Shown: positions 677 to 57,822, numbered from the whole stretch's first letter. The stretch: DNA of 58,191 bases, filler included, from Perkinsus olseni (GCA_013115125.1; 4 parts of 4 records of this genome joined end to end with filler, not necessarily neighbours in it), one strand, 5' to 3'. The notes: a model not told the origin generated them from the letters alone. A program made the numbers and translations.

Positions 677-2348
677 TCAAAATTTCTGAAAGAGGAGTTG
701 GTCTCTGTCGTTAATGCTAGGTGTTGAGCCTTCCGACGATTCAGGGTACCTATGATCATACCCCTCCTTTCGCAAATCACACAGCACACTGAGCTCACTT
801 GTCGAACATCGATGTATCGTCTTCTCCTCTGACTTTCGGTATGAAAGGTGGAGCCAACTGCCGCGCCAAGACCTGCTCCCACTCGGCTCCCTTGAACCTG
901 TGGTGAGATTGTCTTGGCGTCTGCTTTGTGCACTTCTGAAACTAATATCTTAGCTCAGCACGTGCTATCTCAAGCTACTAAACTCCGAGTTAGTGGCAAG
1001 GTCCGATTGAAGACTAATCATCCTCAATAACTTCGTGTGAGTTGAGTGGCGGTGATGAACAAGAAGATTCGCTACAAACCCAGTAATCGCGGCCGACTGT
1101 ACAGACAACGCACTCGAAAGATTCTCACCATTTGTGTTTCTTGATATCATCAGCCCCATTCTTAAGACAACCAAATCGTTTGGAACGGTCATGCGCCAGC
1201 AACCGCTTGATGAGGTCCTTCCCTTTCACGTCGAAGTGGCGCGGGAAATCTATCTTCCCCGCCAGGATCTGAGATTCTCAAATCCACACAATCGACACGC
1301 CTGGGCTGCCAACCTTCTGATAAATTCCGAAAGGATTCTCATGATAGAAGGGCGGATAACCCGCAAGCATCTCGAAGATGAGGACTCCGAGGGCCCACCA
1401 ATCGACCGACTTGCCATGGCCTGACGACATGGAAGAAGTCATCGGATATCTCCCCGAGCATCTCCACCTTTCGACTGGATAATTTCCGGTGCTAAGTACT
1501 CGGGAGTTCCACACAAAGTCCAGGTTCGATCTTCAACCACTTTCGCAAAACCAAAGTCGGTGACTTTGACGTGGCCTGACGAATGACGACCGGTCGATGG
1601 AAGTATCGCCGAGGTCCATTCTCTCACCAGTGGAATCAATCAACAGGTTCTCAGGTTTCAAATCTCTGTAGACGATGTTCATGTCTGAGGTAAGCCGAAG
1701 GTCCCAGGTTCGAACCCCGGGAAAGACATACCATGCAAATATTGAAACGCCAGGATGATCTCAGCCGCATAGAACTTCGCATGGTCGTTCGATAGCCGCC
1801 CTTCCTTGCGGAGATGAGAGAACAGCTCCCCTCCATTAACGTATTCCATCAACATGTACAAACGCTTGTCATCCTGGAACGCCGTGAGCCTGAAGTCAGG
1901 GTGCTAGCGGCGTATCTTAGGTTGACCCCTGCATCACTCGGAATAGCTTACAGGTTGACAATATAAGGGTGCTCGATCATAGACAGGATCATCTTCTCCG
2001 CTTTAACATGCTCAACCTGAGGATGGACGCTAAGTAAGACAATTTCGTGGCGCGTGACGCTTACTTGTTTCAATCGAATCACTTCTGATTTTTTGAGCAT
2101 CTTCAGAGCCATCGGTGAGCCATCGTCCGAGTCCTTCAACTTCACCACTCGAACTCTCCCAAACGTACCTGCAGTCGGCCACTTTCTGACACCTCTAGCT
2201 CCACAATAGCTACACCTCACCAGTCCCGACAGTATCGCGCAGCTCGAACGAATTCACACTGAGTGCTCTCCCTTCCAACAGGCCTTTGAAACGAGCTATA
2301 TGGCTCTGAGAAAAACGTCACTGCGCCACGAAATTATTTCACCTCCAT
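677..2348 (-). CDS. PKA-C: cAMP-dependent protein kinase catalytic subunit (AGC kinase), about 10 exons
   Basis: Spliced translation includes [77 protein letters not shown] and C-terminal PPFIPK..DTSMFD..FQKF*. All introns are GT-AG and keep the frame. Confidence 0.96.
1691..1728 (+). pseudogene. tRNA 3'-half fragment (variable loop, T-arm, acceptor strand) inside a 47-nt PKA intron, antisense to the mRNA
   Basis: taagccgaAGGTCccaGGTTCGAACcccgggaaagaca fills most of intron 1685-1731. Confidence 0.75.
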
Positions 2349-2909
2349 CTCACATTGTCAGTGAGCTGATCAGCCGTGGGAGAGTCGGCCAAGATGCTGC
2401 TACCTTTCACTGAAAATGAGCACAGCGAAATCGTTCAACAGAGAGACGCGACCACACACAGTCCACGCCGCGGAAATTCTTATCAATATGTAGGGGCGAG
2501 GCTTCTCAGGGGAAAATTTTCCAAAAAAAAATCATGCAAATTTTTCACAATCTCGCTGAAGAAAGATACTTTTACTGGATCTCTTCATTAGCGCATGGAA
2601 CTCTTAAGGCTCGTCACTTACACGAAGATCCTCCTCCGCCACTTTCAGTCGACTTAGACGATTTCTTGCTACTGCCGAACATTCACAAACGCAGCAAAGA
2701 CCCTACAATGACAGAGATGCTGAAAATTTACGCAATTTAAAATCAACATAAACGACTCGATCTCCATGAGGGACCGCGAGAAGAACTCGAAGCGCGATCT
2801 TAAAAACGTGCAAAGATTCCGCGCATTCGGCCGACTGAAGGTTGTCATTGACAACACTACCAGAAATGACGTTTGAGAAACGTTTCTCGCTCGGTTCAAG
2901 GAACAAAAA

Positions 2910-5482
2910 CTACTCAATGATCTTCAACGACTTTTCAAAACTCACAGAAGCAATCTTGTCATCTCTGAAAAAGCAACAATAACAGCCGCACCCTGGCGAT
3001 CGGAAAGACGAAGATCTTTCTGACACCTCTAGCTGTGAACTTACATCTTGGAGAAGCACATATGCCGAATCGCGCCTCGTTCATGTACTGGTATTGTCAT
3101 CACTTTTTGTTGAGAGAACGTCTCGAATACGGCAAGACTGCCAATGTATGATCCTGAGCAGGAGAATCTTAGGTTGATCCATGCGCTACGCGAGTAGCCA
3201 GGGAAGCAGACGAGGGACAGATCTTGGCAATAGTAATGACATGATGTTACTGACGTACCGCTCTTATCCGTAGTGGTGGAGAGGACGAAGCTTCTATCGG
3301 CCGACACGGCAAGGGAAGGGTTGTCGTACTCGTCGATATCGATTCCGTAGTATCTACAAGGAATTAAGTGGAGCTATTTTGTATCTTGCCCGCGCAACCT
3401 CAAGATATGGTTACGTTCGGATAGGGGAGTGATGGAAGGCTCGGAACAGCAGAAGCTTATGCGCATCAGTGGCACAGAGGATGAAGGTGTGACCGTCCAT
3501 CGACCACGACAACCTGATCACATGGAAGGTCGCGGGTTCGAACCCCAGTGCATGCATTTTACATGTCTCGAATCCTGAAGCTGACATGTCTATCCAACTT
3601 ATGAGGATTCAACGAGTAATCACCAATGTTCTTCAGCGTCTCGCCCGAGTAGTAATGCATGTACCTGGACAGGGCGCATGAGTTCCGAAAGGAGTGGTAT
3701 GCACGAATGCACACGACTTACGGATCATTCTCAATCGCCATAGCCAATACTGGCTCATCACACTCAAGCCACGTAGCGGCAGACACTGGTTGAGCTTGAC
3801 GGAATAACCCAGTCTTTCTCCATTCAAAATCTAAGCACGATGTAAGAAGCGCGCGCCATAGTGATCGATTTCTCTCACCTTGCGTTCCCTCAACACGTGT
3901 CCGTTCGTAAAACTGGACGGTCATGTCGCGACACGCACTGAACAAAAGTAGCTCTCCATCACCCCTAACTTGTGGGTAGAATTGGCAGCGCAGAACCTGA
4001 GAGCGTTGAGGAAATGCAAGATTGCAAGATATAAAAATCTCTCACGTGTGTTTTGGTAGGGTGGGATGACTTGCCAACTTCTTCACCCGTCGCAGCGTCG
4101 AACGCCAACTGAAATCGAGCGGAAATCAAAAAAGGGAAAACCCGCGAGCTCTGAGAGAAACACCGAACTCTCGATCAGCTGCAGGAGATTTACCGGAAGG
4201 AAACAAAAATTGATGGCGATAATGACGCAGTTGGATTCTCCCAGAGAAATCTATCTTCACTCATTAATCATCAATTCTTTCATCAATTCAGAACGATAAA
4301 GTTGGTATCGCTATCCCGGTATCCTCAGGCGATAAACATATTTTGAGGATGGTGATGACGATAAGATGAACGAAAGGTGAGCATGATGCTCATTAATACA
4401 TCTGTGTGTGATACGAAATCGGCATGATAAGGCGTAATGTCGTAATTAACACGGATTTACCCACTATATTATGCCATCGATATCTTAGGTCGAAGCTGAA
4501 CAAATGCAGAGATAAAGATACCTACAACTTCGCCACCCATACACCCAACAGCAATGAATGCACCATCTGGGCTCCAGTCGAGGGACAGTACAGGAGAGGG
4601 GGCGCGGAAGACGAGGCCAGTGGGTTCGATGCCGGCTGAACGAAAATGGATCTTCGAACGTCCAGAGGGACGCTGCATTGGTACCTTCACTGTCCCTCCA
4701 AAGTTTAACTTCTCTATCGGCACCCCCGGTGGCCAGCAACGTCGAGTCCGTTGGATGGAATACCACGCAGGTCGGGTTGGCTCTAGCACCATGTGGAGCT
4801 GTGGTCGAGCGGACTGAGGCAACACTCTCCATCCCCGACCTCTAAACCCGCGCAGGTTCCATCCCACCCTACCGACTGCATGTGGAGTTACTCCAGGCTC
4901 CTTCACGATGCCTTCCAACAGATCCTCCGGTCCTCCTTCCGACTCATCACTATCACCATTGGCCGCGTACTGAGCTGAATACCTGAGCTGGCAAGCATCT
5001 CCCAGGAGAGTGGCAACACGGCCGTCGTCCCCCAAGGCAACTCATTGGCCACCGAAAGACCCACACGAATAGCCCTCTCAGACAGGGGCCCTACTACTGG
5101 ATAATTACCCGCCTACTGCAACCAGGATGAACAGGGTGGTGGTGTCAGTATAACTCATACCACTCCAACCACTCCCAACTTACCACATATCGATGGCCCT
5201 ATCCAAAATGCTGCAGTCGCTGCTGCCTTCGGTGAACTTAATGCCAGATTCACGCTGCAGAGTAGAGAACGCCTCGAGGTACTCGTGCTCCAAAAGATAC
5301 CTAACAAGCTCAACCTCGTGAGAATCTTTGATTCTGTGTTCATCACGGATCAAGCTTGGATACTACTGCAAAATAGCCTGTAACTGCGCATGTTTGGGCT
5401 TCTGCAAAACACCGCTCTCGCTGGATGAGGGGATGGACGCGGCCGCGCCTTCAATGATGATCTCGGGCTTGATGGTGGTCAT
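2910..5482 (-). CDS. LisH-domain WD40-repeat protein, multi-exon
   Basis: Spliced LisH motif LQAILQYLLEHEYLEAFSTLQRESGI. WD blades: CVVFHPTDSTLLATGGADREVKLW, VLSLDWSPDGAFIAVGCMGGEV, LLFSACRDMTVQFY, LSWSMDGHTFILCATD, IASVSFEKSLKIIE*. Confidence 0.85.
3518..3560 (+). pseudogene. tRNA 3'-half fragment with TTTT tail inside a 49-nt WD40-gene intron, antisense to the mRNA
   Basis: tcacatggaAGGTCgcgGGTTCGAACcccagtgcatgcaTTTT fills intron 3514-3562. The flanking exons join in frame (RDM|LSWSMDG). Confidence 0.75.
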
Positions 5483-5635
5483 ATAGGGGAGTCGAACCTC
5501 GCCGTTGAGGAAATGCAAGATTGCAAGATTGCCCACAACCCAACACTTGGTCGTATGATGAACAACGTAGCATGAACATGGCGCCAAAAAATGAGCAACT
5601 AATCGGAACTCCCGAAAAGCAAGTCAGAAGACTTC

Positions 5636-5661
5636 AAAATACCCTCACCAGGGATTGAACC
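5636..5661 (-). pseudogene. tRNA T-loop/3' end fragment directly after the stop codon of the neighbouring gene
   Basis: Minus strand reads TAG-GTTCAATCCCTGGTGAGGGTA-TTTT. Confidence 0.5.
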
Positions 5662-7998
5662 TACGCGGCCTCCGCTCCTTCGGCTTCCTCCTGAGCTGCA
5701 GCAGCCGCTGCCCCTTCGCCATCCGCAGCGGGGGCCTCTTCAACAGCCTGAGAGACACCTTTCTCATCCATCTCTCAACGAGGTCCTGCCTACCTGCTCA
5801 GCTTCAGTCGGCTTCTCGTCGACAACCTCTGCAGCTTGCTCCTCGTTCTTGCTCTCTTGCGATTCCTCAACGGTGGCATCATTCACAGGCTCTTCAGACT
5901 GGCCTCCATCTTGCTCCTGGCCTTCCAACGCTGCATCTCCCTCATTCTTGCTCTCTTGCGATTCCTCAACGGCAGCTTCAGCTGCAGCCTCTTCCTTCTC
6001 ACCCACCCCAGCTTCCTCCTCCTCACCCTCCCCCGACTCCTCAGCCACCGGCTGCGCATCCCCAGAATCTTGTTCATTCTTGCAATCTTGCGATTCCTCA
6101 ACGGCAGCTCCAGCTCCCTCATCACCCCCCGAGTTCTCATACTCGTCATACAACTTGTGTAGCTCCTTCCCACGCAGGCCTTCTACCATATTCCCGCGCG
6201 CCTGTTCAAAATAAAATCGCCAAAAAACTACCACCCGCCGACCAGCATCACCTTCGTTTTGATAGCCTGTGTTTGATAATAGATTTTCTTCAACTCCTTC
6301 TCCGTAGTGCCGGGGAACTTAGACACATCATCGTGGAACAGAGCTTCGCAGATCTGCATGAAGGTGACCACGTCGATCGAGCTTTCTTGGCCCTGAGAGT
6401 AGAAGAAGATAAAGAGACAACACTCGGCGATTCGGGCAAAGAGTCGTATCCACCAAACACGATTTTCATATCATTACCGATTCAGACGGGCCTATCAATT
6501 CTGCGGGGACCCGCAGAGACGCCAATGCATGATTGATCACTGATGAATACGGAATGGCAACCACCTCCTCCAAAACCATACCACATTTCTCCTAATTCTT
6601 CGACACCAGTTGCACTTCTTTCATACTATCAAATGCGCTTAAAAACCAGAATCTCCTATCTTCATGGTCACCAATAAAGCTGCCTTTTCGGCCTACCCAC
6701 CCCGGCAACCGACCAGATCCGAAGTCGAAGGCAACATCATATCAACCGCGCGAGCTTCACCCCTCCCCTCTCTCGAAACACTAAAAGCCCTCCATGACGC
6801 CTGCCCAGCCTGCTAAGAATGGGTACTATGCATGTCGGCTATGATTGCAGGCTTCGAGACCATCTGAGCCCTCATTCGGCCATGTTACACAAAAACGGAG
6901 GCCACAATGTCTTCCATCACAACGCTTTCAGCTCTAACGACGTTTCGAATTCTACGCGAGGATCAGAGCAACTGCCACCCCAACCACTCAAACCTACTAC
7001 CGTTAGATATCTCACGAGTAATATTTTTTGGATTTCAGCGTGAGAAAATTCATAGGGGAACTCTAAAGCCCTCAGAAGCGTAATCGACCGATCGAATTTT
7101 CTTTTCCTGAATCTTGATTTCAGCTTCAGACTTCCCTCAGCTTACCACGTCCCGAGCGTCGCATAAGTATTGGATTTGAGCGTGAACCGGCTGCAACTTC
7201 CCTCCAGCGGTCGCCAACTCGGCCAGGATCCCCTTCACGTATCTTCAGCGGAGGGTAGTTGGTGCTCGGTGAGACGAAGTAACCCCACCTGACAGGCAGC
7301 TTCCCTCCTTCATCCCTGTTCTCCGCCTGGTCGAATTGAGCCGCATAGGTAGGATACTTCTCACGGTACCTTTCCAGTGGATGAAAATAACAATAACAAC
7401 TTTCCGTAAAATCGCTAAAGAATGATAGCCGAGCATGAGCAGCGAACGATGGCGCTGTGAACCAACCGATAAGAGTCAATCCCTACTCACCCTTCCTCGC
7501 CTAACTCCGCCGCTGCAGATGCTTGGCCGTCCGCCGCCGCTTCAGCGCCACTGCTGTTAGCTTCGACCTGAAAACAATATATATAACGAGAATCGAACCC
7601 ACGACCTCGGGATAGTAAACGTGAATTACTATCCGACTGAGCTAAGCCCACTAACATTTAAACGGTGTGGAAAGACGATACCCCACCTGAGTTTCCTCTC
7701 CTCCCGCCTTCTCCTAACAACAAAAGGAAATCCTCCCGCAGCCACGATACCCCCACAAACTACCTCAACATCCGAGTTCAACTGCGGGAGCTCTTCCTGC
7801 GTCTGCTGAGTAGGATCTTCACCGGCCTGTTCGGTCTGACCAACGGCAAGTCGCCCTGCAACTCACTGTAGTCCGACAGCCATCCACTTCTACCGTAATC
7901 GGTTTGGACTCTTCCACTGTTTCTTTAGCATCAGCTGTGTCCTTGGCAGCCACCACTGCATTAGAATTACCTTTAGCGGCAGAAGCCCCGCAGCCCAT
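5661..7998 (-). CDS. Hypothetical protein with N-terminal myristoylation/palmitoylation motif and acidic C-terminal repeats
   Basis: Starts MGCGASAAK; multi-exon; EF-hand-like segment SIDVVTFMQICEALF; three VEESQ(D/E)(C/S)KNE repeats in ORF 5764-6234; ends AEGAEAA*. Middle exons are less certain. Confidence 0.6.
7585..7649 (-). pseudogene. Decayed tRNA-like sequence in intron 7568-7686
   Basis: GGGCTTAGCTCAGTCGG (A box) ... GAGGTCGTGGGTTCGATTCTCG (B box). The anticodon arm is replaced by the hairpin GGATAGTAA-n7-TTACTATCC. Confidence 0.7.
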
Positions 7999-8007
7999 TA
8001 GAGTAAA

Positions 8008-8050
8008 GCAGTGCGGTAATACTGAGAAGAACCCGGGTTCGATTCCTGCC
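8008..8050 (+). pseudogene. tRNA-like fragment with B box just upstream of the MGCGAS start
   Basis: gaagaacccgGGTTCGATTCCtg. A similar cccgggttcgtttccg lies at 8210-8226. Confidence 0.5.
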
Positions 8051-8247
8051 CTTTGAACACCCACAAGAGTGGTCAGGTTTTATATCGGGCCAACGGTAAA
8101 GTCCCGCTCACCTACGTCCGACGACGAAGAGACTTCCGACGGAGACTCGGAAACCAAACAAAATAATCGATTGCAATGGCGAGCGCTTCTTGCAGCATCG
8201 TCAGCGCGCGCCCGGGTTCGTTTCCGTTTTGAAAGGCTGTCATATTC

Positions 8248-10882
8248 ATGACGTTCGTGGATGATGGTGAGCCGATAGAGCAGCTCAAAGCTCCTTCATC
8301 GGCACTGTTAGGTGATCAGTAGCCCACCTCGATGTTTGCATGCTCAACTGGAGGAACTGGAGAGGGCGTTACAGACCCCTCACAACCGTGAGTTACCAAA
8401 GGAGTGGTATGGACACGTCCTGGGTATAATAACCCGCCTGTACAGATCCGATGGGGCGGATCTCTTGTCTTGTCAAGTTGGTTGCAAAGATGCTTTGCCT
8501 CACCCGTCGGTGTCCCAGCCAGCCCATCTTCTTACTGCCATCGTTCTCTCCTGATTTCCCAAAAATGTGGTATCTAATTTATTTCGTTTTTTAATATTGT
8601 ATACTGAATAATGCTTGTATCTGAAGTCAAGATATATCTGATTCTGAGTGTGAAGGAAGAAGCTCGTACAGGTCAAATCCCATGTGTTTCAGTCCGGAGT
8701 GACAAGGACGCCGCCAAGGGAACGATCATCTCACCGACGGGCCGAGGAGGAATCTTGAGGTCGGGACTCGACCTGGCCAGACTTGAGTTCAAAACCAACA
8801 AGTTGGAAGCGCTGTTAGAGGTGCCCTTGGTGGCCTTCCAGTGGGCGTGATTGCTCTCATATGAGCAGGCTAAAGGCCTCAGTGAAGAAACCGAGTCTGT
8901 GAAAAAAGAAGTTGATGAAAAATTTGTGATGTCGAAGTGAGTGATACGTCCGTACGAACGATGGACCACGCGTGGCGCAGGATGCTACCGGATGATGAGA
9001 TCAGGCAGGTTAGCGATTTGACACAAAAGCTAGCGCGGATAGTACAGGAGAGGAAAGAGCAGGAGGGTGAGTCGAGAAGGGGGTGTGAGGAAATGGGAAC
9101 TGGGTTTGGAATGGGTAGAGAAACACTTCAGTTGGGGGAGCATCGGTGGGCTAGGGTTTCGAGTAATCGTATGGTCCCCGGTTTGATTGCTGTTGGCGAA
9201 TATTTTTCGCACGAGTAATTTCACCCGCCCTTCTCAGACGAGACAAACCGACTAGTGCAGGAGCTGAGTATCTCCCAGCTGAAAATAGCGGAGATCGAAA
9301 GAAAACACGGGCGCGTAGCGAAAGACTTCACCGGCAACACTGCCAGTGAACGTCATCACCCGATAGGTGCCCGAAGGGGATGAGCAGCTCCAACCACCTC
9401 CAGAAAATCTCTACGATCTTTACGCTCGGCAAGAGGACCTCGACCGACGCATCCTCCTCCGTGAGCTCGCTAATAGCGACTCTGTAGGAGATGCTCGTGG
9501 GGCGCGGACTAGGAAGAGATGAGTTTCGCCTCAGCCGATGGATCGCCTCGAGGCAGAGAAGTACCACTGGATAACGCACAAGCTGACCGCGGGGCCAGCA
9601 CAGTTCCAAAACGATAGTGAGGATTGGTTCTGTGGAAAGACGTGGGAGTATTGTCGTTTGCATAGAATGGCTGGATGAGCAAATAGAGGAACTGAAGCGG
9701 GCCAGCTTTGAGAAAAACGGAGAGGAAGAGGAAGAGATTGATACAAAGCGATTTCTCGAACTCGCACAGAAACAGCTCATTACCATTAGAGAACGGGTAC
9801 GTTGTTGTGATTCGCCTGTGGATTGTTAGATGTTGGGCAAAGGGTTTGATGGTATCTTCTCGTCCTTGCCAGCGCGAGGCCATTCACGCGAGGAGGGGGA
9901 GGGATGTGGGTGTGAACAGGGGAGATCTCCTGAAGGAGGTCATGTACCCTAACCAGTTCGAGGAGCTCATGTGAGTGCATGGGCGGAGTTCTGATCTGGT
10001 GGAAATGTGGTACGGCGAAGTCGGTCTTGCGGAACCCCCCGATGGAAGAACAGTGGCAGTAGCGGACGATTATGTCTTATTCTCAACCTTGTCCTCGCAT
10101 CTTCCCGTCGTTGCATTAGACCTCCTCTCGGCACGTTCGAATGACTTGAGCACTCGTTCCCAGTTTCCATTTTTCCTCAGAGTCCGAGCTCAAACAGAGA
10201 AACTGTTGATGACTTCACAGACCACGCTAGTCGACAATTACCTAAACTCTCGCAAGGTGCAGTTTGGCGGTGTAGCGAGTTGGACAGGGAGCGCCTTCAG
10301 GGCCGCGAGCTAGATCTACCAATAGCAGATCCAGTCGTTGAGAAGACTTTTCATCCGCCGAAAAAAGACCGCAGGAAGAAGGCCAAGGCATTCCTCTTCC
10401 TCGTTCTACACAAACGCCACTCCCGCCTCTCTTTCAGGCGTTGTTGCACGACCGAGCGGGCCCTAATGATGCTGCTAACGAGGAAGCGTGCGAAACATGG
10501 GCCAAATATGATCCTGCTGTGAGCGTCGAGCCGGTCTGGTGTGCTTTTAATGGGAAACTCGCAGGTTGTGAATCCGATGACACGCGAGGCTCGACAGATG
10601 TTGGACGACCTCAAACGAGAGAAGGAAGAGTGGGTGAAAGTAGCTCTTGAACAGTGGGAAGAAGTTGCAGAAAAAAATGAAGGTGAGAGGCTGTGAAATC
10701 GGGCTGTCTTTTATTTTTATCCGTCAGCTGCAGAGGAGGAGATTATCTGCGATGATGTGCCGTTGCCAGACGAGAGAGTTGCTGATGATGATTCGGTCGT
10801 TTTAGTCGGCATTGACGATCCCCATGAGAGTACTGTTGTTGTGCAGCACGTTGTTGACCATGACGAAAATAATAATGCCTGA
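8248..10882 (+). CDS. Hypothetical coiled-coil protein (one or possibly two multi-exon genes)
   Basis: Series of GT-AG bounded E/K/L-rich exons (ARLEFKTNKLEALLE, EWLDEQIEELKR, RQMLDDLKREKEEW) ending DENNNA*. No family recognised. Confidence 0.5.
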
Positions 10883-11160
10883 TGTGACAAGGATGTTGTT
10901 TTAGTTTTCAGTGTAGTCGGTCAGCAGCTCGCGTCGTACGTGTTTCCGCTCCGTGTGGACGAGGTAACAGTCCAATGCAACTACCGTGAGGGTGTATCAG
11001 GGTATACAGGCTCTCATCCCGAAGCTCATTCGGCGGTCGCACTAGTATCGTACTCATACCTCTCGACCTTCATACTAGGGCCGGCCACGGTTGACCAGCA
11101 GCCACTAACGCAACTCTGGTCGAGTAGACATCAACAACACCCTTGCCACACATACACCCG

Positions 11161-11912
11161 TCAATGTCTTCTTGGACGCTTTCCCTCCCCCTCCTCATCT
11201 CTCATCTTTCTCTTGTGCGAGGACCGAGAGGCCTCCTTACGTTCCTTCTTGCTTCTTATTTTCTCAATCTCATGCAACATGTCATCTCTGACACTTTCAT
11301 AGAACGCCGTCAGCCAGCTCAAGCCTCGAAAACGGCCCACGTACTTCCCCGGGGGGTTGTCGATCAGCTCCTCGGCAATGCTGATGCATCGTTTCATATT
11401 CGTGTGCACGTCCGTGCTGTTCTTCAACGCGTTGCTCATCAGAATTTCCTTGCTCGTTTCAGAGAGCATCCTCCAGGGCGAAAAGCGCTGCATCTTCTCA
11501 CGGCGTCGAGTCCTACCACTCCTTGTCCAACTCCCAGGCTTAGCTACTATCAGTAGGACGTCCTCGTCTGTGAACTCCCTGAAAGGGATTCTGCGGAATA
11601 CGGGTGATGTCGCAGCGACCTCACACGGTGTATGAGTAACCATGGACTGAGTCCGACAACCACGATGTAGCGAGGCCATCTCTTTCATTGATTTTAACGG
11701 TGTACGACAAGAAGGGTTTACTTTGATAAAAGGCACACTCCAGTCTCTCGGTGGGGCTGACCATGATCTGAACAAGAGGGCAAGTAGGGAGAGGGTCTAA
11801 GGTGATATCGTCGTACTCTCTCATCTCTCAAGATCCTACCATCGAAGATGCGGGCAGTGGACGACGCAACCGATCCGACGGTAGAGGCGAAGAGAATAAA
11901 GTTGGAGACCAT
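11161..11912 (-). CDS. Hypothetical protein, possible signal peptide and basic C-terminus
   Basis: ORF 11161-11775 with a helical core and KKERK..KRPRRH tail. An upstream frame begins MVSNFILFASTVGSVASS. Confidence 0.4.
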
Positions 11913-13420
11913 GGTCACGATTCGGAAACGTGGAGAACGGGCGAGAATACAGGGTGTCAAGCACATTCTGCTGATGATCAGCAGCAGCAGCAGCTGATAC
12001 TATCTTGCCTCTACGCTGAAGCGGGCTAAGTGGGGGATGACAAGAAGGCGGCAGACGAAGGTTATGACCCCGGATGGCAAAACTCGGGTGTTATCTTCTG
12101 AATGAGTCGGCCCCTAGCCAAGGGTATCATGCGAGTAAACACAACAAGACAACGTCATGCATCCCCATGAAATAGCATCTCCGACCGCGAGGTCGTAGCT
12201 GGTGGGAGATAGCATGTCTCGCCATACTCAGTACTCATCTCGAGTCCACAAGAACACCTACCTTAACAGGGCTACATGCATATCTTATCTTCTGGCTTCT
12301 TCCACATCATTCTTTACGATTTCATCCGCCCCTTGTTTCACTCTTCATTCTTCATCGACGACCAGAACCAGTTGAACTGGCGAGAGGGAGTAGCAAAGCG
12401 TCTGCAAGGGCGTCCAGTTAACTCGAAACCCGAACTCATACATCAGTGTCTGTTTTCAAAAAATGGCGGTCCATCTTCGGCAAGTTGCGGTAAAGTAAAC
12501 CTCGACCAACTCCCGTGGGTTGAGCTTGGGGCCCTCACACTTTGAAGGACCCCTACACTACACGACTCATGACTCGTGTCAATGCCCCCTCAGCTGACGA
12601 ACGCGCCATGAGAACACGAGAAGCAGAGCTGAGCTAACCGTAGCTGAGCTGACTGGAACCTTATGGAAGCCAAGCTTACACGGCATAGCTGCCGTCTCCG
12701 CGTTCCCCAGGGAGGCGAGACGTGACCGCCTTGCTGAGGCGTGCGCGAAAGCCAGCCAGGTACGTACGACTGGGGAGAGGATAGCCAAAACATCCGCGAG
12801 AATTCGCAGAGCGTAGCTTATGGGCTGCGTGTAGAGCATATGCGTTCTTTGAGTTGCGTGCGCTCCCCGTAGCCCCACGCGCACTTACAACCAAATTCCA
12901 AGGGAAAATTCCGCTCGTCCGCACTGGCCAAAGGCACTGACCAGAATCCAAGGACTCTGACCGAAATCCAAGGCGGGCGACCAACGTGCTTCCTGTAAAG
13001 TTTACACTGCGCGGCCCTCGGCCTTTAGGTCGCCCCGAAGGCGAGCTGAGTCGGGTATCGGGTTCACAGGGGTTACGGTCAGCACTCCCCACAGACTGGA
13101 AAACAGACGCCTTGCCCTGGGTGAGACGCTTTCGCTCACCCTGCGCTGTCTCCGGGGACATCCCCTTGGATTTTGTACTTTTGTACTTTTGTACCCTTCG
13201 ATTCTGGTCAGCTGTCCCGGAATTTGTACTTTGCCCGTTCAGAGCGCGTATTTTTGTGCGCAAAATGGTAAAGAGGAATTCCGGGAGGGTAATTAGCAAA
13301 ACACGTTCAAAATGCTTCCATGGGAGCATCTTCAGGGATCGCCCCGGGTAACAGTTCCGGGACCGGGTTTCGGGAAGGGTTTCTGGTGTCTTATTCCTGC
13401 CTTCACCCGCAATTCAGGTT

Positions 13421-19776: not shown

Positions 19777-19811
19777 GGTAGGTGCTGCAGTTTTTATAGC
19801 AGAGATATATT

Positions 19812-41619: not shown

Positions 41620-41896
41620 CGACGTGAAAGCCTCTGCAATGTCCCTCGCTGTTTGCGATATCATCCCTGTACTGATGAGAATACGAAGCCACCGGAAGAA
41701 GATGGCCAAGGCCCACAATGAAGCTAATGGGGTTGGGAAGGCACAAAGCAAGGAGACTTCTCAGCAGCAGAAGAAAACTTCTTAGTGCTCGTAGCAATGC
41801 ATTGTCTATAGTTGCTTATTTTTGCTAATGATGCCATTTTGTCGAACGCAGGTATTGTGTCGAGAGTTGTCCCCGTGCTGTTGGAACGTGGGATAC
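41620..41896 (+). pseudogene. Diverged copy of the last exon and 3' flank of the VTT gene (35752-36028)
   Basis: Directly alignable, e.g. ctgcaatgtccctcgctgtttgcg..gaagatggccaaggcccacaatga..gagagttgtccccgtgctg. Confidence 0.9.
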
Positions 41897-43516: not shown

Positions 43517-43650
43517 TGGGGTGCACGTCACTCGTGGCGGCAGCCGTTCTGAGCGTGATGTTTCCGTCATCTTACAACCTTAGTTCTTTGAATGATATGA
43601 TGGTATTCCGTAACATCATTGGTGGTCTCCTTATTGTGATCTTGGTGGTC
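43517..43650 (+). pseudogene. Truncated paralogue of the secreted protein 5' end
   Basis: atggtattccgtaacatcatt.gtggtctc..tattgtgatc.tggtg is shared with 40167-40214, and the upstream flank is also similar. Confidence 0.7.
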
Positions 43651-43883
43651 AGGGCGTTTCCTAAGAAGATTTCTATAGCGGATCTACATGTTCATGAGTT
43701 GCAGTATAATTTGAACGACCGTNNNNNNNNNNNNNNNNNNNNNNNNNNNNNNNNNNNNNNNNNNNNTTAATTAATTAANNNNNNNNNNNNNNNNNNNNNN
43801 NNNNNNNNNNNNNNNNNNNNNNCTCCATCGCAACACAATGAAGCCAGACTCGACATCGCACGGCTAGCGGCTTTGCTGCGTGT

Positions 43884-46789: not shown

Positions 46790-47058
46790 GCTTAGATTTT
46801 CACCGTCTCCAGCTTAGATTTTAACCGCTTAGTTTTTCGCCGCTTAGATTTTCACCGTCTCCAGCTTAGATTTTCACCGTCTCCAGCTTGGATTTTAACC
46901 GCTTAGTTAATCGCCGCTTTGATTTTCACCGTCTCCAGCTTAGATTTTCACCGTCTCCAGCTTAGATTTTAACCGCTTAGTTTTTCGCCGCTTATTCTCG
47001 GGCGTGCGCTTTTCTTCTTTAGATTTTCGCCCTCTCGCTTAGATTTTCACCTCCTACC
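46790..47058. repeat. Modular subterminal tandem repeats, likely the MULE terminal region
   Basis: Interleaved units cttagattttcaccgtctccag (22 bp), cttagattttaaccg and cttagtttttcgccg, ending at cacctcctacc. Confidence 0.75.
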
Positions 47059-49050: not shown

Positions 49051-50789
49051 CTTTCGTGATGTGCTCGGTACACGAGCCGTATGTGATATTTGATAAGAGT
49101 GGTTTTCACTCCTCCCACTCCTCAAGTTAGCCCCATCTTGAGTCTTCACGGGCCCTGCGTTTAATCATCGGTGAGTACTGTAGGGTAGCACCACAGCCAA
49201 GTGCCTAGAAGAGAAACCAATCCACTATCAATAATGCTTCATGACTATTGAAGTATGGCTAGAGGATATTCACGCTAAATGGACAGTGCTAGTACACTAC
49301 TGTTTAGCACATACTCTACAGTACATTAACCCAGCAATGGCAGCATGCCGGATCACTCGAGCCAATGGAGGATTTGACGGGCTTGGACCTGTTCAAGAAG
49401 TTTTGAAACACTCTTCCCGCGGTGTCGTTGATGGGAGCCTGTATCTTTGTTAGCATGCGTGACTGTAAGTTGATGGTAGGCTTATACTGCTTGCTTGGTG
49501 CAATTCGGAGCCTCGAGGCTTCTCCTACATACTACTGGACTATGTAGTTACCGTTTTGAGATACCGCTGAAATCACTCGCTAACCTCATGCAGCAAGTTG
49601 CTGCCAGCAACCCTTCTACACATTCCCATCACTCAAACCCAGTACGTACCTATTACTATATCAGCCGAAAACTGCGCTGATTCCTTGGTCAAACCCAATA
49701 CGTACCGCCGGCCCGTAGTACTAGATAAGTACCCTAGAACTATTCCTCTTGGGTCAACCCCTATGGCCCATAGTCTATGGGAGAATACCGTGTTAACTCC
49801 CACTAGCTGTATTGCCTACACAATCTGCCGAAGTAACTACACAACACTGACGCCACGGCCATCTTGGGTCTATCATGCCTGACTAAGTCTCTGGCGTCGA
49901 CATTAAAACCACACACAGATGAGTCGCAAATACGTTCCGATCACTACACAAGTCTGAGCGTGTATCGGGCTATTGATTGCGATAGAGGCAGGGTGAGCGA
50001 GAGCGTCCACCTAGTCTAGGAGAGCTTCAGCGGGCTCCAATTTGTCCACGGTGAGGCGCGCTTCATATGATTACGATCGTGCCTGAGCACACACTGGAGG
50101 GACAGGATTGCGTCCTGTTGGGAGCGCCTTGACCTGGTCACTCTTCGGCACACACTTCACGGAAGATCGTTGGTGAAGGAGTCCTACGAAGAGCATATCG
50201 AGGAGTTAAGCCCAATATGTTTCAACACGGAGCCATTCTTTCCTCCAAGCCTACTTGTGTTGATGCTGAAGGGAGGTTCTCCCGATCCTCATCCGATGGA
50301 GACGAGTAAAGGAAAAGCTTGTCCTCGGACGTGCGAGGGTTATGGCGGGGCTGCTGTTATGCCGTTCATAAATAAGGAACGCCCTGGATTATTGTGAATG
50401 CAGTGATGACGTGTCCATACACATATCGCTTACAGTCTGTAAGAAAGAAAATGCAACATGCAAAATGGAGCCACTGAGCCACAGGGCAAAGCAGCAGCAT
50501 CAGGCGACGATCGAAGCAACACTCAAATAGTCGCGCAGTGCTTCAGTTATTCGACCACCGTCCTGTCACGTGGCATAGTGGCCTCATTCTTGCATGTTGC
50601 ATAGTGGCCTCATCTCTGCATGAAGATACTTCAGCGTTTGTGTCGCGACTTTCGTCCAACCTCGAAGGCACCGATGTATCGAACACCTGCTGACTGCCCA
50701 ACACAACAAGTACTATTAAAACCTCATCCTCGTCACTTTCTTCTCACAAATAGAGTACTTAAAAATGCAGTTTGTCCATCAGAACAGTG

Positions 50790-52423: not shown

Positions 52424-55400
52424 ATGTCCAGCATTCACGAAGCAGCTGCTGCTGGAGACCACCGTCGTATCATGAGGATGGTCTACTCGGGTGAGGAGCG
52501 ACCTTTGCATTTCTTATCACAGAAACTATATTTTTTTTTCATCTGGCGCCAACTGTTTACGGATTTTTCAAGAAAGCAATCCGATAGTAGCGACATGGGG
52601 GCGTTACAGCATAGGCCTGATTCGCTGGTGGATCATGCGATTGAAGACTGATTCGCAGATGCGGGATTGAAGGTCGAAATGCGTCGATTTCTTCTAGCTG
52701 GCAAGGGCGCGTAGAAACTGACTGCGGTTTGCGGCAAAATGTATGCATCTTGATGAATCACGCAATCTTACTAAGTGTGATTGAATTTTTGCTCATGAAA
52801 GCAAAGCTTTAAAATTGGCAGTAGGTGAGGGATCTCCGGATCGACTCACGGTCACTTGCTCGCCTTGAGTCGGATAACTGTGCGTCCTTCTGTGGAGGCC
52901 CTTCATGATATGACCGAAGGAATCTTTCTTTGATCTCGACCTGACCGACATTCAATCACCCTTCGATCAGGTATGGATGTCAACTCTGTTGACGAGTATG
53001 GACGGACGCCTCTGCACGTGGCTGTACAGGAAAAGCAATTGGACGCGGTAGTGCCGAGGCGGTTCGTCTTCTCAGGAATCTCTTGCGGTCTTCTTTCGAT
53101 GTGTTGCTGAATTTTCGGGAGATTTATGGTATTAGAATGTGAGCATTCCCGTTCTCCTATCAGGTGAAAGCTCTAGTGATGTGTCGAGCTCGGGCAGACA
53201 TAAAAGATTCTCTCGGGAAATCTTGTGACCGATTGGCGGAAGAAGTCTGGTTCGAATTGAGTTCTCAGGGTGAGTGCTGGTCCATCACGGACTTTCCTTA
53301 ATAGTCCTTTGCTGAGCTTTCTGCTATAGAGTTTCCCGAAAATCAGTGGATTGATTCAGCTGAGTATGTCGTCCTCTGTGCTGGGCGCGCGTCAACTTCC
53401 GCCAGGGAGCACCTGATTGAGGCTCTCGAGTGTTGATTGCGAATCTGTCATTTTCTCATGGGTTCCCATTGTTTCCTTTCTTTAATTGCAGTGATTACTC
53501 AGCTTCGCCGCGCTCATACGGTAGCAGTTCCGTTCGGTGCCGTTGCTGGAGGCATTTAGTGGTTGAAGAAGATTCGTTTCTGCGGGGATTGGTCGCTCTC
53601 AGGTTGCCCTGAGAAAAGCAAGCTCGGTGAAAAGATACGCTATTTTGTAGCGCTTTATCCTGGGGGGAAGAGAGTTGCGGACACGAGGAAGATCATGATT
53701 CAGAATCAACATCTACCGCGATTTCCTCCATTCCTTCCTGCTAGTGGCCCGGAGGGTGAGAATCTTGCGGCTGCGCGAAAGCGATAAAGAGAAAAAATGC
53801 TTGATATGAGGTTCGAGCCATGGGCCCTTTGGTTGCAGGTCAGCCGCTCATCCGGAAGGCCATAATCATCGGGCAAGCGCACTATGAAGCGAACGGGCAG
53901 AGCATCCATCACGCCTTGGCCGATTCCCAAATAGTTGCACATCGTCTGAGTCGTATAGGGTATGATGTCACTGTAGGTATCAATTTGGAGACAGAGGAAC
54001 TGCGGAGGTATCTTCGAACCCTATACAGAGCGTGAATCAACTTAAGATACGCCTTAGATGCCTGATGGATGGACTTGATGAGCTGGAGCCCGGCCCTCTT
54101 CGACTGGTTATATATTTCATCGGTATGGTCGAGAGGAGAACCGATGCGGCCGGACGGAGGGAATCTTTGCTGTGCGGCGTGAACCGTCGGTAGTACATCA
54201 ATGGCGAATACGGTTTGCGGCCGATCGTGATTGAGAGATAGCATCTCGAGTCCCCTTCCCGGTTGAGAGTGTTGACGCAAGAATATCTTCTTACTCGCCC
54301 AGCCCTCGGTGAACCTCGAAGATGCCTGAAGATTTCTGTTGCAGATTTTCGCCTGCCCGAATGCCCGAGGACCTCGCTCTTGAGGAGTTACTCAAAACTC
54401 TGGAAGGGAAAATGAAATTCGGTTCGACTGCTCTGATGGTTGTTGATGCCACCAGGTGCGTCACTGCGCCACGAAATTAGCGCCGTCGGAGGTAGAACTC
54501 TTTTAGATCTTTCTCGACCGTTCCGGGAGGGCTTGAGCGAGGATCTCCGTCGTGTGGCGTCGTTACACCACCGATGGTCACGCACAGCGAAGGATTCTTG
54601 GATGCCGAGCAGGCAGCATTGGCGACTGTGCTCGGGAGAATACCGTCATCATCAATGGGGCTGAGGTCATGGTACTGCGGGAAGAAGAAGATATGTTTTT
54701 GTCAGGCGCCACGAAATTATGTAAGGCTGGAGAGTTTCTCAATTTTCAGCGTCGGCATGAACCAGTTTTCTCCGGACCGCAGCTTCCCCTCGGACTTCTA
54801 CAGTGGGGCCTCTGTCCGATCCGATTTAGACTACGTGGCATCATGCGGGCCTTATCCTGCTGAGGTAATCGATCACCTGATCGATTTTATCTGGGAGTAT
54901 CTTTCTGTCAGGTTGGAAGAGGTATTTCTTTGCTGTGCGCGCATCTACCAAATAAACTACTACCTGCAGAATTTTTCGAGCCTTTGTCAATGATTTTCTC
55001 GGACGGTCAGTATTCCTATTTCGCAATTTTCCTTACTTTGCTGCATTCAGAGTCGACTACATCCCTTCTAGCTCCGGAAAAGGCTCAGATTGACCGAATG
55101 GTGGAGCTCTCAGGAATCACCAGGAATTGCTCCGTGAAGGTGATAACCCTTGGAAGTTTGTCGGTGTATTGTCTGAGTCTCTGGTGGCCACGAGCTTGCT
55201 GCTGCGGGGTGTTGCTCGTCACTGTCCTTCAACAAGTTATTACGTTATTTATCCCATTCTTGTGTGACGGTGGCTAAGCTCGGATATTCCTGCGGAGTTT
55301 GTGTAGTATCCAAGCTTGAGCTGTATCAAACCAGGGTGGGGTATCTTTGTGAATATCGTATCATATTGGGCTTTCAGTCGAGGGAAACGCTCAGGAAGCG

Positions 55401-55728
55401 CAGCGCGAAGATTCTCAATTTGCCAGAAGATTCTCCCCCGGCTTCGATATTTGGAGTATGTTTAGACGCGGCTCTTGAAAAGTTTGCGGACGATTATGAA
55501 CGGGTAAAACTATCCGCATTTGGCTTGTAGTAACCCGTTGCCCTCAGGTGTGTACCGGTGTATCTGCTGACGTTAGTGAGGCTACCGGAAGAGTTCAGCG
55601 ACCTTGGTCACGGCTTGCCTGATTTTACCATGTTCTCAACTTCACGGTGTTCTCCAATTCTGATGCGCGTTTGTTCAGGAGGGCGGTGAAGAAGGGCTGC
55701 ATCGTTGTTCTCAGCTGGTCCCCATGAT
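52424..55728 (+). CDS. Ankyrin-repeat protein fused to a catalytically dead caspase-like (C14/paracaspase-type) domain; 3' end uncertain
   Basis: [35 protein letters not shown]; in-frame spliced link to [39 protein letters not shown] and LMVVDATR. Confidence 0.7.
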
Positions 55729-55792
55729 GGGCGAGTCCGGGTATGGGAGGATCTTGGATTTTTCCGCAGCCGGAAGATTTTTGGCGTCCTCG

Positions 55793-57822
55793 ATGGCCTT
55801 ACTCGCGTCCTCGCTGCTGTCGAACGTTTTCGGCGCTCCCTGCGAGTTGGACCTTCAAATCGATGCCGAGCCGGGCAGGAAGAAAGCGCCGGTTACTCGT
55901 GACAAAAAGGGAGAACTCGGATACATCTTTACTGTATTTGCGCACAGCGAAGGATTCAGGATACCTTTTCTATTGGCAGGATGGCGAGGACGTTTGTGGC
56001 ACGGCGACGGTCCGTCTGAAGGGCGACAAGCGGTTGGAGCATCAGGGAATCAGAGTCGAACTCATTGGGCAAGTTGGTAAGAAAGTGAGAGTTTGAATTT
56101 CTCCGGACCGGTTATTGGTTGCCTCGGGTTTGGTACTTGAGCTGTTATGTATCATCCTTGCTTCGACCTTAGATATGCTCTATGACCGATCGAGCTCGTA
56201 CGACTTCTTCTCGATCGCCAAGGATCTGGAGCCTCCGGGAGTCCTCACTGAAACTCGAAGCTACAAATGGAAGTAGTACTCCATTCTCATCTTCGGTGTG
56301 TTGCACACAACCCAGCGGAATACGTGTACACAGTCGCCGTTCCACCACTCCCTAGTGCGGTGACACTGTGTGTGTAGTGTCACCACTCCCTAGTGCGGTG
56401 ACACTGTGTGTGTAGTGTCANNNNNNNNNNNNNNNNNNNNNNNNNNNNNNNNNNNNNNNNNNNNNNNNNNNNNNNNNNNNNNNNNNNNNNNNNNNNNNNN
56501 NNNNNNNNNNNNNNNNNTGTGTAGTGTCACCACTCCCTAGTGCGGTGACACTGTGTGTGTAGTGTCACCACTCCCTAGTGCGGTGACACTGCGTGTGTAG
56601 TGTCACCACTCCCTAGTGCGGTGACACTGTGTGTGTAGTGTCACCACTCCCTAGTGCGGTGACACTGTGTGTGTAGTGTCACCACTCCCTAGTGCGGTGA
56701 CACTGTGTGTGTAGTGTCATCACTCCCTAGTGCGGTGACACTGTGTGTGTAGTGTCACCACTCCCTAGTGCGGTGACACTGTGTGTGTTGTGTCACCACT
56801 CCCTAGTGCGGTGACACTGTGTGTAGTGTCACCGCACCGTAGTGCGGTTCCATCACCACGGAGTGAAATTATCGACAACAGCCACTCTCCGGGAAGACGC
56901 GCGACGTGACGGATGGCCGGAGCGAGAATCGCCGAGTATGATTATCCCTCCCGCATCTCTCAGGTTCTCTTCGGTGGATAAAACGTGCGAGACTTATAAT
57001 GGAATCAATGTCCGCCTCCGATACTTAGTCCGACTGGTTGTGCAGAGGCCGTATGCGACGTAATAGTAAAGAATAGCTAGAGGTGTCAGAATAATGAGTC
57101 CATCAGGAATGTTTCCAAGGAGGTCGATTTTGCAGTGCAGCTTGTCCAGCCCCAGCCCGAAATGAATACCAGTATCAAAATGGAGGTAGGAGAAGGCAAC
57201 GGATCGGGCCATGAGATTTCCCCTGCAGGTCGGGATTGAAGATTGCCTTCACATCGAGTTTGAGTATTCCCAGTCGAAATTCAACCTGAAGGATGTCGTC
57301 GTTGGGAAGGTGTATTTCCTTCTGGTGAGGCTCAAAATAAAAGTAAGTGACGACGGTTTCAGTCGGCGCCAGGAATAGATGCTCGTTTGCAGCACATGGA
57401 GTTGGACATTATTCGTCGCGAGGTCACGGGCGCTGGTGCCGGCTCCAATCAACTCGGTGGTACAACAGATAATGAAACTGTCACCAAATTCGAGATTATG
57501 GATGGAGCACCAGTGAGAGGTAGTGAACTGTGAACTCGATGTATCGCTGCTGCACGCGGTTCACTAGCTTATTGAGTATCATCTGTTATTTCCTGCTCAG
57601 CCGAATGCATTCCAGTCCGCCTTTACCTGTCCGGGTTCGACCTCACCCCTACCTATAAAAATGTCCAGGTGGGCATGAGTACGAGCAGTGAAGTGGGTGA
57701 TTGTGTGGTTTCAGAATAAATTCTCGGTGAGATACTTTCTCAATTTGGTGTTGGTCGACGAAGAGGATCGGCGATACTTCAAACAGCAAGAGATCACGTT
57801 GTGGCGGAAGACTATTGGATGA
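55793..57822 (+). CDS. VPS26: Retromer subunit VPS26
   Basis: [91 protein letters not shown]. Confidence 0.97.
56343..56833. repeat. 38-bp hairpin-containing minisatellite inside a VPS26 intron
   Basis: Unit caccactccctagtgcggtgacactgtgtgtgtagtgt; at least 10 copies visible around an N gap. Confidence 0.95.

Follow-up and report, generated by a model that had tools for sequence, protein, structure and literature searches.

Short blocks shared by tiny introns of Perkinsus olseni look more like copied patches than a mobile intron family

Why do tiny introns of unrelated genes in Perkinsus olseni, an oyster parasite, carry the same short stretches of sequence? The window analysed here is a stretch of 58,191 nucleotides (GCA_013115125.1; four parts of four records joined with filler). 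The initial annotation had noticed about ten short introns in five genes that share a tRNA piece, an rRNA-matching word or another motif, and had proposed that an insertion or repair process copies abundant RNAs or nearby DNA into breaks. Our census lists 33 introns, 4.5% of the window, in the PKA, LisH-WD40, caspase and Vps26 genes, and these intron counts leave out the middle 47 kb. Twelve introns are RNA-confirmed, 13 are backed by orthologous proteins and 8 come from ORF logic. The 12 introns of LisH-WD40, a minus-strand gene, are skipped by contigs of the X7 and X9 runs, and all 12 have GT..AG ends. Comparison with proteins of P. olseni and P. chesapeaki indicates that seven caspase-gene introns and eight Vps26 introns are non-coding. 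We rejected the further idea that the protein alignments demonstrate intron positions common to the window and P. olseni, as they indicate no more than that the segments are non-coding in the window. The eight PKA introns are predicted solely by ORF and kinase-motif logic, and the gene is nearly uncovered in X9 and in X7, presumably an RNA run. Removal of 2017-2064 joins ..EVIRLKQ with VEHVKAEK.., the intron at 2169-2220 interrupts GTG|TFGRV, and in-frame removal of the predicted 48-nt intron at 2306-2353 deletes two stop codons. Four of the five host genes proposed earlier hold such introns; in the fifth, an acidic gene, the related sequence is coding.

Blocks shared among unrelated introns

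With 12 known repeat or duplication blocks masked beforehand and 60 Markov shuffles per order as the null, we found eight long-range exact matches of at least 17 nt, against a mean of 0.12 to 0.27 and a maximum of 2 in the shuffles. Seven of the eight fall into five motif families. These five and a tRNA-like pair make six strong families, and 13 of their 15 copies lie inside the 33 listed introns. A strong module is present in 14 of the 33 introns and any module in 19, so the earlier figure of about ten was correct as to sharing but an undercount. The block sizes of the families are 17, 17-19, 19-21, 22 and 27 nt, and the remainder of each intron is unalignable. Self-BLAST between introns returned blocks of 15-28 nt and nothing longer, with unrelated flanks. 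For all matches of at least 15 nt, 12 were seen against 2.6-3.0 by chance.

Expectations for single motifs were derived from 100 shuffles. M1 (CGTCACTGCGCCACGAAATTA) had 2 exact matches against 0.00 expected, and its 13-nt core had 5 matches at up to 1 mismatch against 0.0. An exact 21-mer copy lies at 2316..2336 (+) in PKA intron 2306-2353, in the opposite sense to its host gene, and one with a 1-nt deletion at 2041..2059 (-), 6 nt into PKA intron 2017-2064; this pair is inverted and 275 nt apart. Further copies are found at 54459..54479 (+), 4 nt into caspase-gene intron 54456-54506, a segment missing from P. olseni P0001, and, as a variant, at 54701..54720 (+) within the 78-nt caspase-gene intron 54672-54749. 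M2 (AGCTAGAGGTGTCAGAAAG), which is LSU-rRNA-like, had 3 matches at up to 3 mismatches against 0.03 expected: 2182..2200 (-) in PKA intron 2169-2220, 3016..3034 (-) in the RNA-confirmed WD40 intron 2965-3044, and a 17-nt copy at 57075..57091 (+) in Vps26 intron 57060-57106, which is backed by P. chesapeaki Vps26A. M7 (GTAGTATCCAAGCTTGATCCGT) forms the opening 22 nt of the RNA-confirmed WD40 intron 5301-5366 (5345..5366, -) and recurs with 2 mismatches at 55303..55324 (+) within the 238-nt caspase-gene intron 55140-55377.

M10, a 26-mer at 3679..3704 (+) in the RNA-confirmed WD40 intron 3665-3721, has imperfect copies at 8389-8414 (+, 3 mismatches) and 754-779 (-, 5 mismatches). M12, a 20-mer at 13125..13144 (+), matches the reverse complement of 49988-50007 with 1 mismatch; GTG precedes both copies, which by their look are candidate intron starts. 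M2 (3 of 3), M3 (2 of 2) and M7 (2 of 2) each always face the same way with respect to their host genes; M1 (3 to 1) and M10 are mixed. Of 14 pair distances, nine are below 5 kb and five are 37-55 kb, where gene clustering alone predicts about half within a cluster.

It is very improbable that chance, convergent splice signals or an assembly artefact explains these blocks. Such an explanation would suit the weak family M9 (TCAACCTAAGATACGCC; 1909..1925 (-) in PKA intron 1890-1951, with relatives at 54037-54053 and 3161-3177), which had 4 matches against 1.66 expected and may represent branch-site context. It would also suit the 15-16-mers at 2094/37512 and 38384/57547, which are at chance level. 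For the strong families, however, chance is refuted: they stand well clear of the shuffled sequences. Against an artefact, all words sampled from 900-7000 were found in six independent DNA runs, the region is collinear in diverged strains, and RNA contigs splice the introns out.

In the 32 introns examined for them, we found no terminal inverted repeats (TIRs), the best terminal inverted match being 8 of 14, and no target site duplications (TSDs), as junctions slide by 0-3 nt and no flanking repeat goes beyond AG|GT. Both absences had been noted before, as had the conclusion that these are not introners, which agrees with the missing hallmarks and the lack of full-length alignability.

Exon, coding-repeat and stable-RNA sources

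One pair of copies runs from exon to intron. M8 (CGCACAGCGAAGGATTC) lies at 54581..54597 (+) in a coding exon of the caspase gene (..THSEGF..), conserved in P. olseni P0001, and exactly again at 55941..55957 (+) in Vps26 intron 55934-55979, which is backed by P0002. Both copies had been taken as intronic, which is incorrect for the first. Because 54581-54597 is a conserved coding exon, it is, as far as sequence can tell, probably the donor and the Vps26 intron copy the recipient. The exon lies 1.36 kb upstream, in line with the earlier suggestion of copying from nearby DNA.

A second nearby relation concerns M4. This 27-mer lies at 4004..4030 (+) in the RNA-confirmed WD40 intron 3997-4045, where its gene-strand end falls 7 nt short of the 3' splice site. 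The exact second copy at 5503..5529 (+), also described as intronic before, is in fact non-intronic; it precedes the WD40 ATG by 21-47 nt and adjoins a T-arm-like stretch. Read inverted, both copies agree in 24 of 27 positions with a repeat in the coding sequence of the acidic gene, 0.55-2.1 kb away (6077..6103, -), which has weaker M4-like copies at 5846-5872 and 5945-5971.

Other modules resemble stable RNAs. M3, a 22-mer like a tRNA T-arm or B-box, had 3 matches against 0.01 expected, which bears out the tRNA piece of the initial annotation. Two are antisense to their hosts, at 1697..1718 (+) in PKA intron 1685-1731 and at 3525..3546 (+) in the RNA-confirmed WD40 intron 3514-3562; the third is a tRNA-like gene at 20517-20638. 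Neither ARAGORN nor Rfam called a tRNA at the M3 sites 1697-1718 and 3525-3546, which hold a 22-nt T-arm-like stretch only, where a tRNA-derived SINE would have a tRNA-like head with A and B boxes and a body, in many copies. The reverse complement of M2 is a conserved stretch of snoR1, the consensus of an Rfam box C/D snoRNA family; this stretch can be read as an rRNA guide. The putative 28S link of M2 has indirect backing from this Rfam consensus. Rfam placed snoR1 at 57073-57110 (-) with 12.5 bits against a gathering score of 49 (E = 1.3), below the family threshold. An Rfam scan of 2296-2356 gave no match for M1, and an E-value scan of 1650-4100 gave four weak hits, all unrelated. A single metagenome match to the M1 20-mer, in a bacterial-looking ORF, and viral-contig matches to the M2 17-mer at five loci, none of which reached the gathering score of an Rfam family, were judged to be chance. 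No module matched the spliced-leader exon PmaSL (21/22 nt) at up to 3 mismatches.

Three side observations were made. By eye, 2384-2403 looks SL-like, with a 2-nt indel. The tRNA-like gene 20517-20638 repeats its own 5' half in inverted form, and three near-perfect palindromes with a 1-nt spacer lie at 21644-21861; both are fold-back signatures.

One contig brings two modules together. It is RNA-like, with a depth of 2653 in X7, and holds reversed M2 and M1 with 22 nt between them, its joint linking window positions 2201 and 2316. Its DNA depth (17.7 in X8, 76 in X10) is about single-copy. A C-box-like motif precedes one of its modules, an order also seen in the snoR1 family. To our knowledge it has no verifiable likeness to SRP RNA, U4, U6 or organellar LSU rRNA. 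In one orientation it complements two PKA modules, the M1 of intron 2306-2353 and the M2 of intron 2169-2220, two introns that flank one exon, and it is also complementary to M2 of the WD40 and Vps26 introns.

This contig, abundant as RNA and about single-copy in DNA, would fit an origin of the blocks as filler, in which reverse-transcribed abundant RNAs (tRNA, rRNA, snoRNA, highly expressed mRNAs) were captured at breaks. The tRNA-like M3, the snoR1 stretch in M2 and the presence of a reverse transcriptase ORF in the window point the same way, as do the more than 100 intron-less genomic copies of the spliced-leader exon reported in P. marinus (PMC3101222). We nevertheless consider such capture quite unlikely. 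The pieces are much shorter than known small-RNA retrocopies, their copies have identical ends, whereas independent captures from RNA would not give the same boundaries, and the M8 donor is a weakly expressed neighbour and no abundant RNA. The only reverse transcriptase ORF in the window looks degenerate and sits between LTR-like direct repeats; it is therefore not a LINE and gives no support to the LINE enzyme acting in trans that had been proposed earlier.

The same contig raises the question of function. Modules kept by selection as pairing sites for a trans-acting RNA, or as protein sites (TFIIIC at the B-box-like M3), would account for their exact conservation within otherwise unrelated introns, for the complementarity to the contig around one PKA exon and in WD40 and Vps26, and for the acceptor AG just downstream of M4 in both contexts. 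We regard this as very unlikely, as one M8 copy is coding, the snoR1 score is far from its gathering score and M1 has no Rfam match. A more specific version, that the single-copy abundant RNA acts in trans on the intron modules as putative pairing sites, two of them flanking the PKA exon antiparallel, seems highly doubtful to us. We attach the same slight credence to its extension, in which the captured fragments would amount to a network of guides and targets by which tiny introns are marked or regulated. If the abundant RNA does pair with the modules, there would be an unrecognised layer of intron control.

Patchworks, strains and the proposed copying

Outside the window, contigs of X8 and X10 carry modules side by side at other loci, with spacers of 0-24 nt. 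The joints are the T-arm followed directly by M4; M1, 5 nt, M4; M4, 4 nt, reversed M1; M1, 21 nt, M1; and M1 touching reversed M1. They imply an arrangement M1-M4-reversed M1 at another locus, whereas the window copies are solo and without duplications. M1 alone is matched by 3-9 contigs per run, yet four copies lie within the 58-kb window; its edges are sharp at 2041, 2059 and 2335/2336. M11, a 34-mer present once in the window (3374..3407 (+), WD40 intron 3354-3414), is matched alone by five contigs each in X8 and X10, with loose ends at 3374 and 3407.

These patchworks, with M1, M4 and reversed M1 in a row and M1 touching reversed M1, could suggest that small mobile elements once inserted into introns, or created them, and that the modules are the best-conserved parts left of these elements. 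Candidates are a MITE-like element with M1 as its TIR, maybe a SINE with a tRNA-related head (M3), or a decayed introner family. The sharp M1 edges, the B-box-like core within M3 and the single orientation of M2, M3 and M7 would agree with this, and introner elements occur in related syndinean parasites (PMC7789003). We still think it unlikely. TIRs and TSDs are absent from all 32 introns examined, 17-27 nt are exact inside and random outside, unlike uniform decay, the source of M8 is a conserved exon and M4 is similar to a coding repeat, the contig with M1 and M2 is about single-copy by DNA depth, and no tRNA was called at the M3 sites.

The strain comparison covered the window region 1-13400. 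Contig 18 of X8 spans 1621-2495, with five PKA introns, at 34 differences and no gaps, from a strain about 4% diverged. No presence or absence of introns and no insertion polymorphism was seen across these five introns. As the contig is collinear and gap-free over the PKA introns, the patches are older than that split. This finding lends no support to the earlier proposal that the inserts help to create introns, and the evidence fits patches placed in introns that were already there no worse than it fits the birth of new ones.

Taken together, the shared modules look more like the product of copy-and-patch mutation than like a mobile intron family. The reading that we tentatively prefer, with a little less than even confidence, is that break repair or replication copied them in as short templated patches, with nearby DNA and the genes of abundant RNAs as sources. 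In its favour are the excess of exact 17-27-nt blocks and their concentration in otherwise unalignable introns, the exon-to-intron direction of M8, the inverted likeness of M4 to a coding repeat, the occurrence of both direct and inverted copies, the patchworks, the few but clustered M1 copies, the fold-back signatures and the lack of TIRs and TSDs. Tiny introns and the untranslated sequence next to them would gain patches of about 17-27 nt when a 3' end that is broken or stalled primes for a moment elsewhere, copies about two dozen bases and comes back; this would be template switching of the Pol-theta or MMBIR kind, during end joining or replication. The templates would mostly be nearby DNA, such as a neighbouring exon, a coding repeat of a neighbouring gene or other introns; further templates may be genes or transcripts, thus DNA or RNA, of very abundant tRNA-like and rRNA- or snoRNA-like species. 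A patch could be recopied, giving families with the same or nested ends; this secondary copying must be assumed because the same ends within a family would not be expected of independent switches. Patches would last where the sequence is nearly free, in introns and beside splice acceptors. Besides the common ends, several observations speak against templated patches: five families connect opposite ends of the window, 50-55 kb apart, which is far for known local templated insertions, M2, M3 and M7 each have a uniform orientation, the M1-M4-reversed M1 arrangement resembles a small inverted-repeat element, and the X8 contig shows no insertion polymorphism.

If patches keep rewriting tiny introns, Perkinsus would preserve, naturally and in fixed form, the traces of a type of repair otherwise mostly studied at induced breaks, and intron sequence could turn over or arise without mobile elements. 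In practice, exact 17-27-mers common to introns and exons could cause errors in repeat finding, in the design of primers and in the mapping of short reads.

Comparison with known systems

Introner and introner-like elements are known from Micromonas, Aureococcus, fungi and dinoflagellates. They have also been described in Amoebophrya (PMC7789003). The modules are like introners in that related sequence recurs across introns of unrelated genes, with one orientation in some families, but they lack full-length similarity and terminal repeats, have few copies and include one exon donor.

Relict spliced leaders occur in Perkinsus and dinoflagellate genomes. Those of P. marinus, with more than 100 reported genomic copies of the 21/22-nt exon without intron (PMC3101222), likewise stem from an abundant small RNA and are dispersed in units of about 21 nt, sometimes in tandem and with variable flanks. 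The modules, however, are not SL and sit in introns rather than in 5' UTR arrays, a residence that mRNA retroposition leaves unexplained. They also share with small-RNA retrocopies and chimeric retrogenes the presence of stable-RNA pieces within introns. SnoRNA retroposons and U6 chimeras are near full-length RNAs with LINE hallmarks, whereas the fragments here are about 20 nt and the window has no LINE.

In Daphnia, introns have been gained through break repair with filler DNA by an end-joining route. Short foreign sequence within introns and a proposed end-joining route are common to both cases; unlike in Daphnia, the X8 contig is gap-free over five PKA introns and flanking repeats do not go beyond AG|GT.

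Templated insertions made by Pol theta alternative end joining or MMBIR are short, copied from elsewhere in direct or inverted orientation and often from nearby donors, with patchwork junctions and perfect hairpins as by-products. The 17-27-nt blocks are likewise identical to sequence elsewhere in both orientations, with donors that may often be near, and with patchworks and hairpins. In contrast to such insertions, the window copies form small families with common ends, some partners are 50-55 kb away or at other loci, and the copies are fixed, mostly in tiny introns and beside acceptors.

Recurrence of short blocks

Short blocks recur in the window, as the initial annotation had noted, and their exact or near-exact copies are far above chance expectation. 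The module M2 (AGCTAGAGGTGTCAGAAAG) gave 3 matches versus 0.03 expected and M1 (CGTCACTGCGCCACGAAATTA) gave 2 exact matches versus 0.00, with a 13-nt M1 core matching 5 times (0.0 expected). M3, a 22-mer resembling a tRNA T-arm, matched 3 times versus 0.01 expected, one of the three being the tRNA-like gene itself. M4 (a 27-mer) and M8 (a 17-mer) each have two exact copies in the window, and M7 is exact over 17 positions and alike at 20 of 22. After masking of 12 larger-repeat blocks, 8 long-range exact matches of at least 17 nt were left, whereas 60 Markov shuffles per order averaged 0.12 to 0.27 such matches and never gave more than 2; seven of the eight belong to these families (the set of M1 to M4, M7, and M8). 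We therefore give hardly any credence to chance or artefact as the origin of the modules. Matches of 15 and 16 nt in the window showed no excess and were at chance level.

The eighth match is a perfect 25-nt inverted pair (18465-18489 and 18963-18987, 473 nt apart), which is unrelated to the intron modules and possibly marks the ends of a small element. A 13-mer encoding SLLC is common to two caspase-gene exons (54160-54176 and 54923-54939) and resembles the M8 reverse complement, at a significance no better than chance.

Genes of the window and residence of the modules in introns

The window is nuclear DNA of Perkinsus. Two of its open reading frames have as sole database relatives proteins named Vps26A, from P. 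olseni (71% identity) and P. chesapeaki (91%). A Pfam search of 286 open reading frames of at least 70 amino acids places a PKA-like protein kinase gene (~1.2-2.4 kb) and a WD40 gene (2.9-5.5 kb) on the minus strand, F-box, ArgRS, ChAPs, and VTT genes in mid-window, a caspase-domain gene starting at 53.8 kb, and Vps26 starting at 55.8 kb; an acidic repeat gene lies at 5.6-6.4 kb. The window holds one tRNA-Ser gene and one odd tRNA-like gene. The public P. olseni model P0001 (compared with 53569-56084) merges the caspase-domain gene and the third Vps26 exon into one protein, whereas in P. chesapeaki and in the window the two genes look separate. A tandem array of at least ten 38-nt units, with an N gap inside, fills the long third intron of Vps26 (56257-56897); a second one, built of 22/30-nt units, is found at 46790-47051.

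In the WD40 gene, 12 segments are skipped by contigs of two runs tentatively labelled RNA-like (X7 and X9). All 12 have GT..AG ends on the minus strand after the reported cut shifts, and they include the introns with M2, M3, M4, M7, M10, and M11 (a 34-mer single in the window). Seven segments of the caspase gene are absent from P0001 and eight of Vps26 are absent from the P. chesapeaki Vps26A protein (P0002); all listed introns of both genes have GT..AG ends. For PKA, which has almost no RNA cover, eight introns are predicted from open frames and canonical kinase motifs, and removal of one (2169-2220) restores the kinase motif GTG|TFGRV. The resulting census covers 33 introns of these four genes, together 2634 nt or 4.5% of the window; it excludes two further Vps26 introns and any intron from 7 to 53 kb. 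A strong module is present in 14 of these introns, and any module, including M11 and the weak M9 family, in 19. The claim that the modules sit in introns holds for 13 of the 15 strong-family copies (six families), but one M8 copy (54581-54597) is coding and one M4 copy (5503-5529) lies outside introns.

The first bases of several introns (5366, 54190, ~56273, and 55303) are GTAGTA(C/T), which is unusual for a 5' splice site; the donor of the spliced-leader RNA is reported as G|GUAG (PMC3101222). Upstream of the PKA coding exons, 2384-2403 (minus strand) resembles by eye the P. marinus spliced-leader exon, matching it over 5 and 9 bases on either side of a 2-nt insertion, and may be a relict spliced leader.

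Sources, orientation, and copies at other loci

The coding M8 copy encodes part of a 15-residue stretch kept in the P. olseni protein, and an exact copy lies 1.36 kb further down that strand, in the Vps26 intron 55934-55979. As the exon copy is conserved, the exon is probably the source and the intron copy the recipient. The M4 copy at 5503-5529 closely precedes the WD40 start codon and adjoins a T-arm-like stretch, and M4 is alike, inverted, at 24 of 27 positions to a coding repeat of the neighbouring acidic gene. The orientation of M1 is three to one, because the copy at 2316-2336, in a predicted 48-nt PKA intron, is reversed; that of M10 is mixed.

The M2 stretch, a putative 28S rRNA match, is presumably part of a universally conserved LSU region. 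In Rfam, the M2 site at 57055-57115 is matched best, on its opposite strand, by snoR1, a box C/D family, at 12.5 bits (E = 1.3), far under the gathering score of 49. Downstream of the C box, the snoR1 consensus includes a stretch equal to the M2 core in reverse complement. We regard it as improbable that the modules function as sites of pairing or binding.

Six DNA runs contain every word sampled from 900-7000, and in the diverged strains of X8 and X10 the region is present with about 4% difference. Across 1621-2495, an X8 contig has 34 differences and is gap-free, so the five module-bearing PKA introns showed no polymorphism at that depth. Many X8 and X10 contigs match one module alone, with flanks unlike the window, and loose contig ends accumulate at 2041 and 2059 (5-9 contigs), 2335/2336 (3-5), 3374 and 3407 (5 each), and 3680 (5). 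Contig joints, given as left>right window positions, place modules side by side at loci outside the window region: T-arm then M4 directly (1717>4003), 2059>4002 (5 letters apart), 4030>2312 (4), 5530>2320 (11), tandem M1 21 letters apart (2059>2042), and M1 against reversed M1 (2058>2311). One contig (2201>2316, 22 letters between) joins reversed M2 to M1, with a C-box-like AGATGA upstream of the reversed M2 at a spacing like that of the snoR1 consensus. Its depth is 2653 in X7, 17.7 in X8, and 76 in X10, the latter two being about those of single-copy contigs of the same runs.

Possible origin and comparison with known systems

We lean, tentatively, toward reading the intron modules as short templated patches: a patch would be laid down when end joining or replication switched template, and would occasionally be copied again. 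We favor this because the blocks are short, exact, direct or inverted, few, clustered, and set in unrelated flanks, and because at least one was copied from a neighbouring exon and other loci have patchwork arrangements. Counting against it, family copies end at the same positions, five families span both window ends (50-55 kb), and M2, M3, and M7 each keep a single orientation. If the modules were left over from decayed introners or from a small inverted-repeat element, this would fit a locus for which contig joints imply the order M1, M4, reversed M1, but we consider such an origin unlikely given the exon donor, the single-copy depth, and the absence of TIRs and TSDs, which the initial annotation had noted and which held in the introns examined. 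Less likely again is reverse-transcribed filler from abundant RNAs. The sole reverse transcriptase of the window (a weak RVT_1 match, 38716-39066, minus strand) lies between direct repeats of ~277 nt (35752-36030 and 41620-41899, 5.87 kb apart, 91% alike), and is therefore probably part of a degenerate LTR retroelement, not a LINE. A second repeat pair lies at 40146-40219 and 43579-43652. The capture interpretation put forward earlier is partly supported: introns may plausibly have received copies of nearby DNA and of RNA-gene-like sequence. Intron creation, a LINE reverse transcriptase, and Pol theta are hypothetical components of it.

Fold-back products also occur in the window. Three near-perfect hairpin palindromes with 1-nt spacers lie in a row, apparently intergenic, at 21644-21861 (arms 20, 19, and 39 nt long, with 100%, 89%, and 97% identity, respectively). 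The tRNA-like gene (20517-20638, minus strand; Rfam tRNA, 36.9 bits; anticodon loop Leu-UAG by eye) carries after its anticodon stem an inverted ~40-nt copy of its own 5' half (roughly 85-88%), and another copy, 86 nt long and comprising that half together with sequence upstream of it, lies at a distance of 860 nt (associated coordinates 19732-19817 and 20552-20593).

We found no description of shared short modules in Perkinsus introns in literature on Perkinsus introners, intron gain, templated insertion, and repeats or assembly, as far as accessible and supplementary tables aside; PMC9399869 contributed nothing further on introns. Introns of 39-1622 bp, mostly below 100 bp, are reported in PMC3101222, as are more than 100 genomic copies of the 21/22-nt spliced-leader exon of P. 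marinus lacking its intron, often in tandem. None of the modules is the spliced leader, but these copies are a precedent for dispersed units of ~21 nt derived from RNA. Amoebophrya introners, as described in PMC7789003, carry inverted and direct repeats, unlike the window introns. On the reading we tentatively favor, the modules would be a variant of known templated-insertion phenomena.
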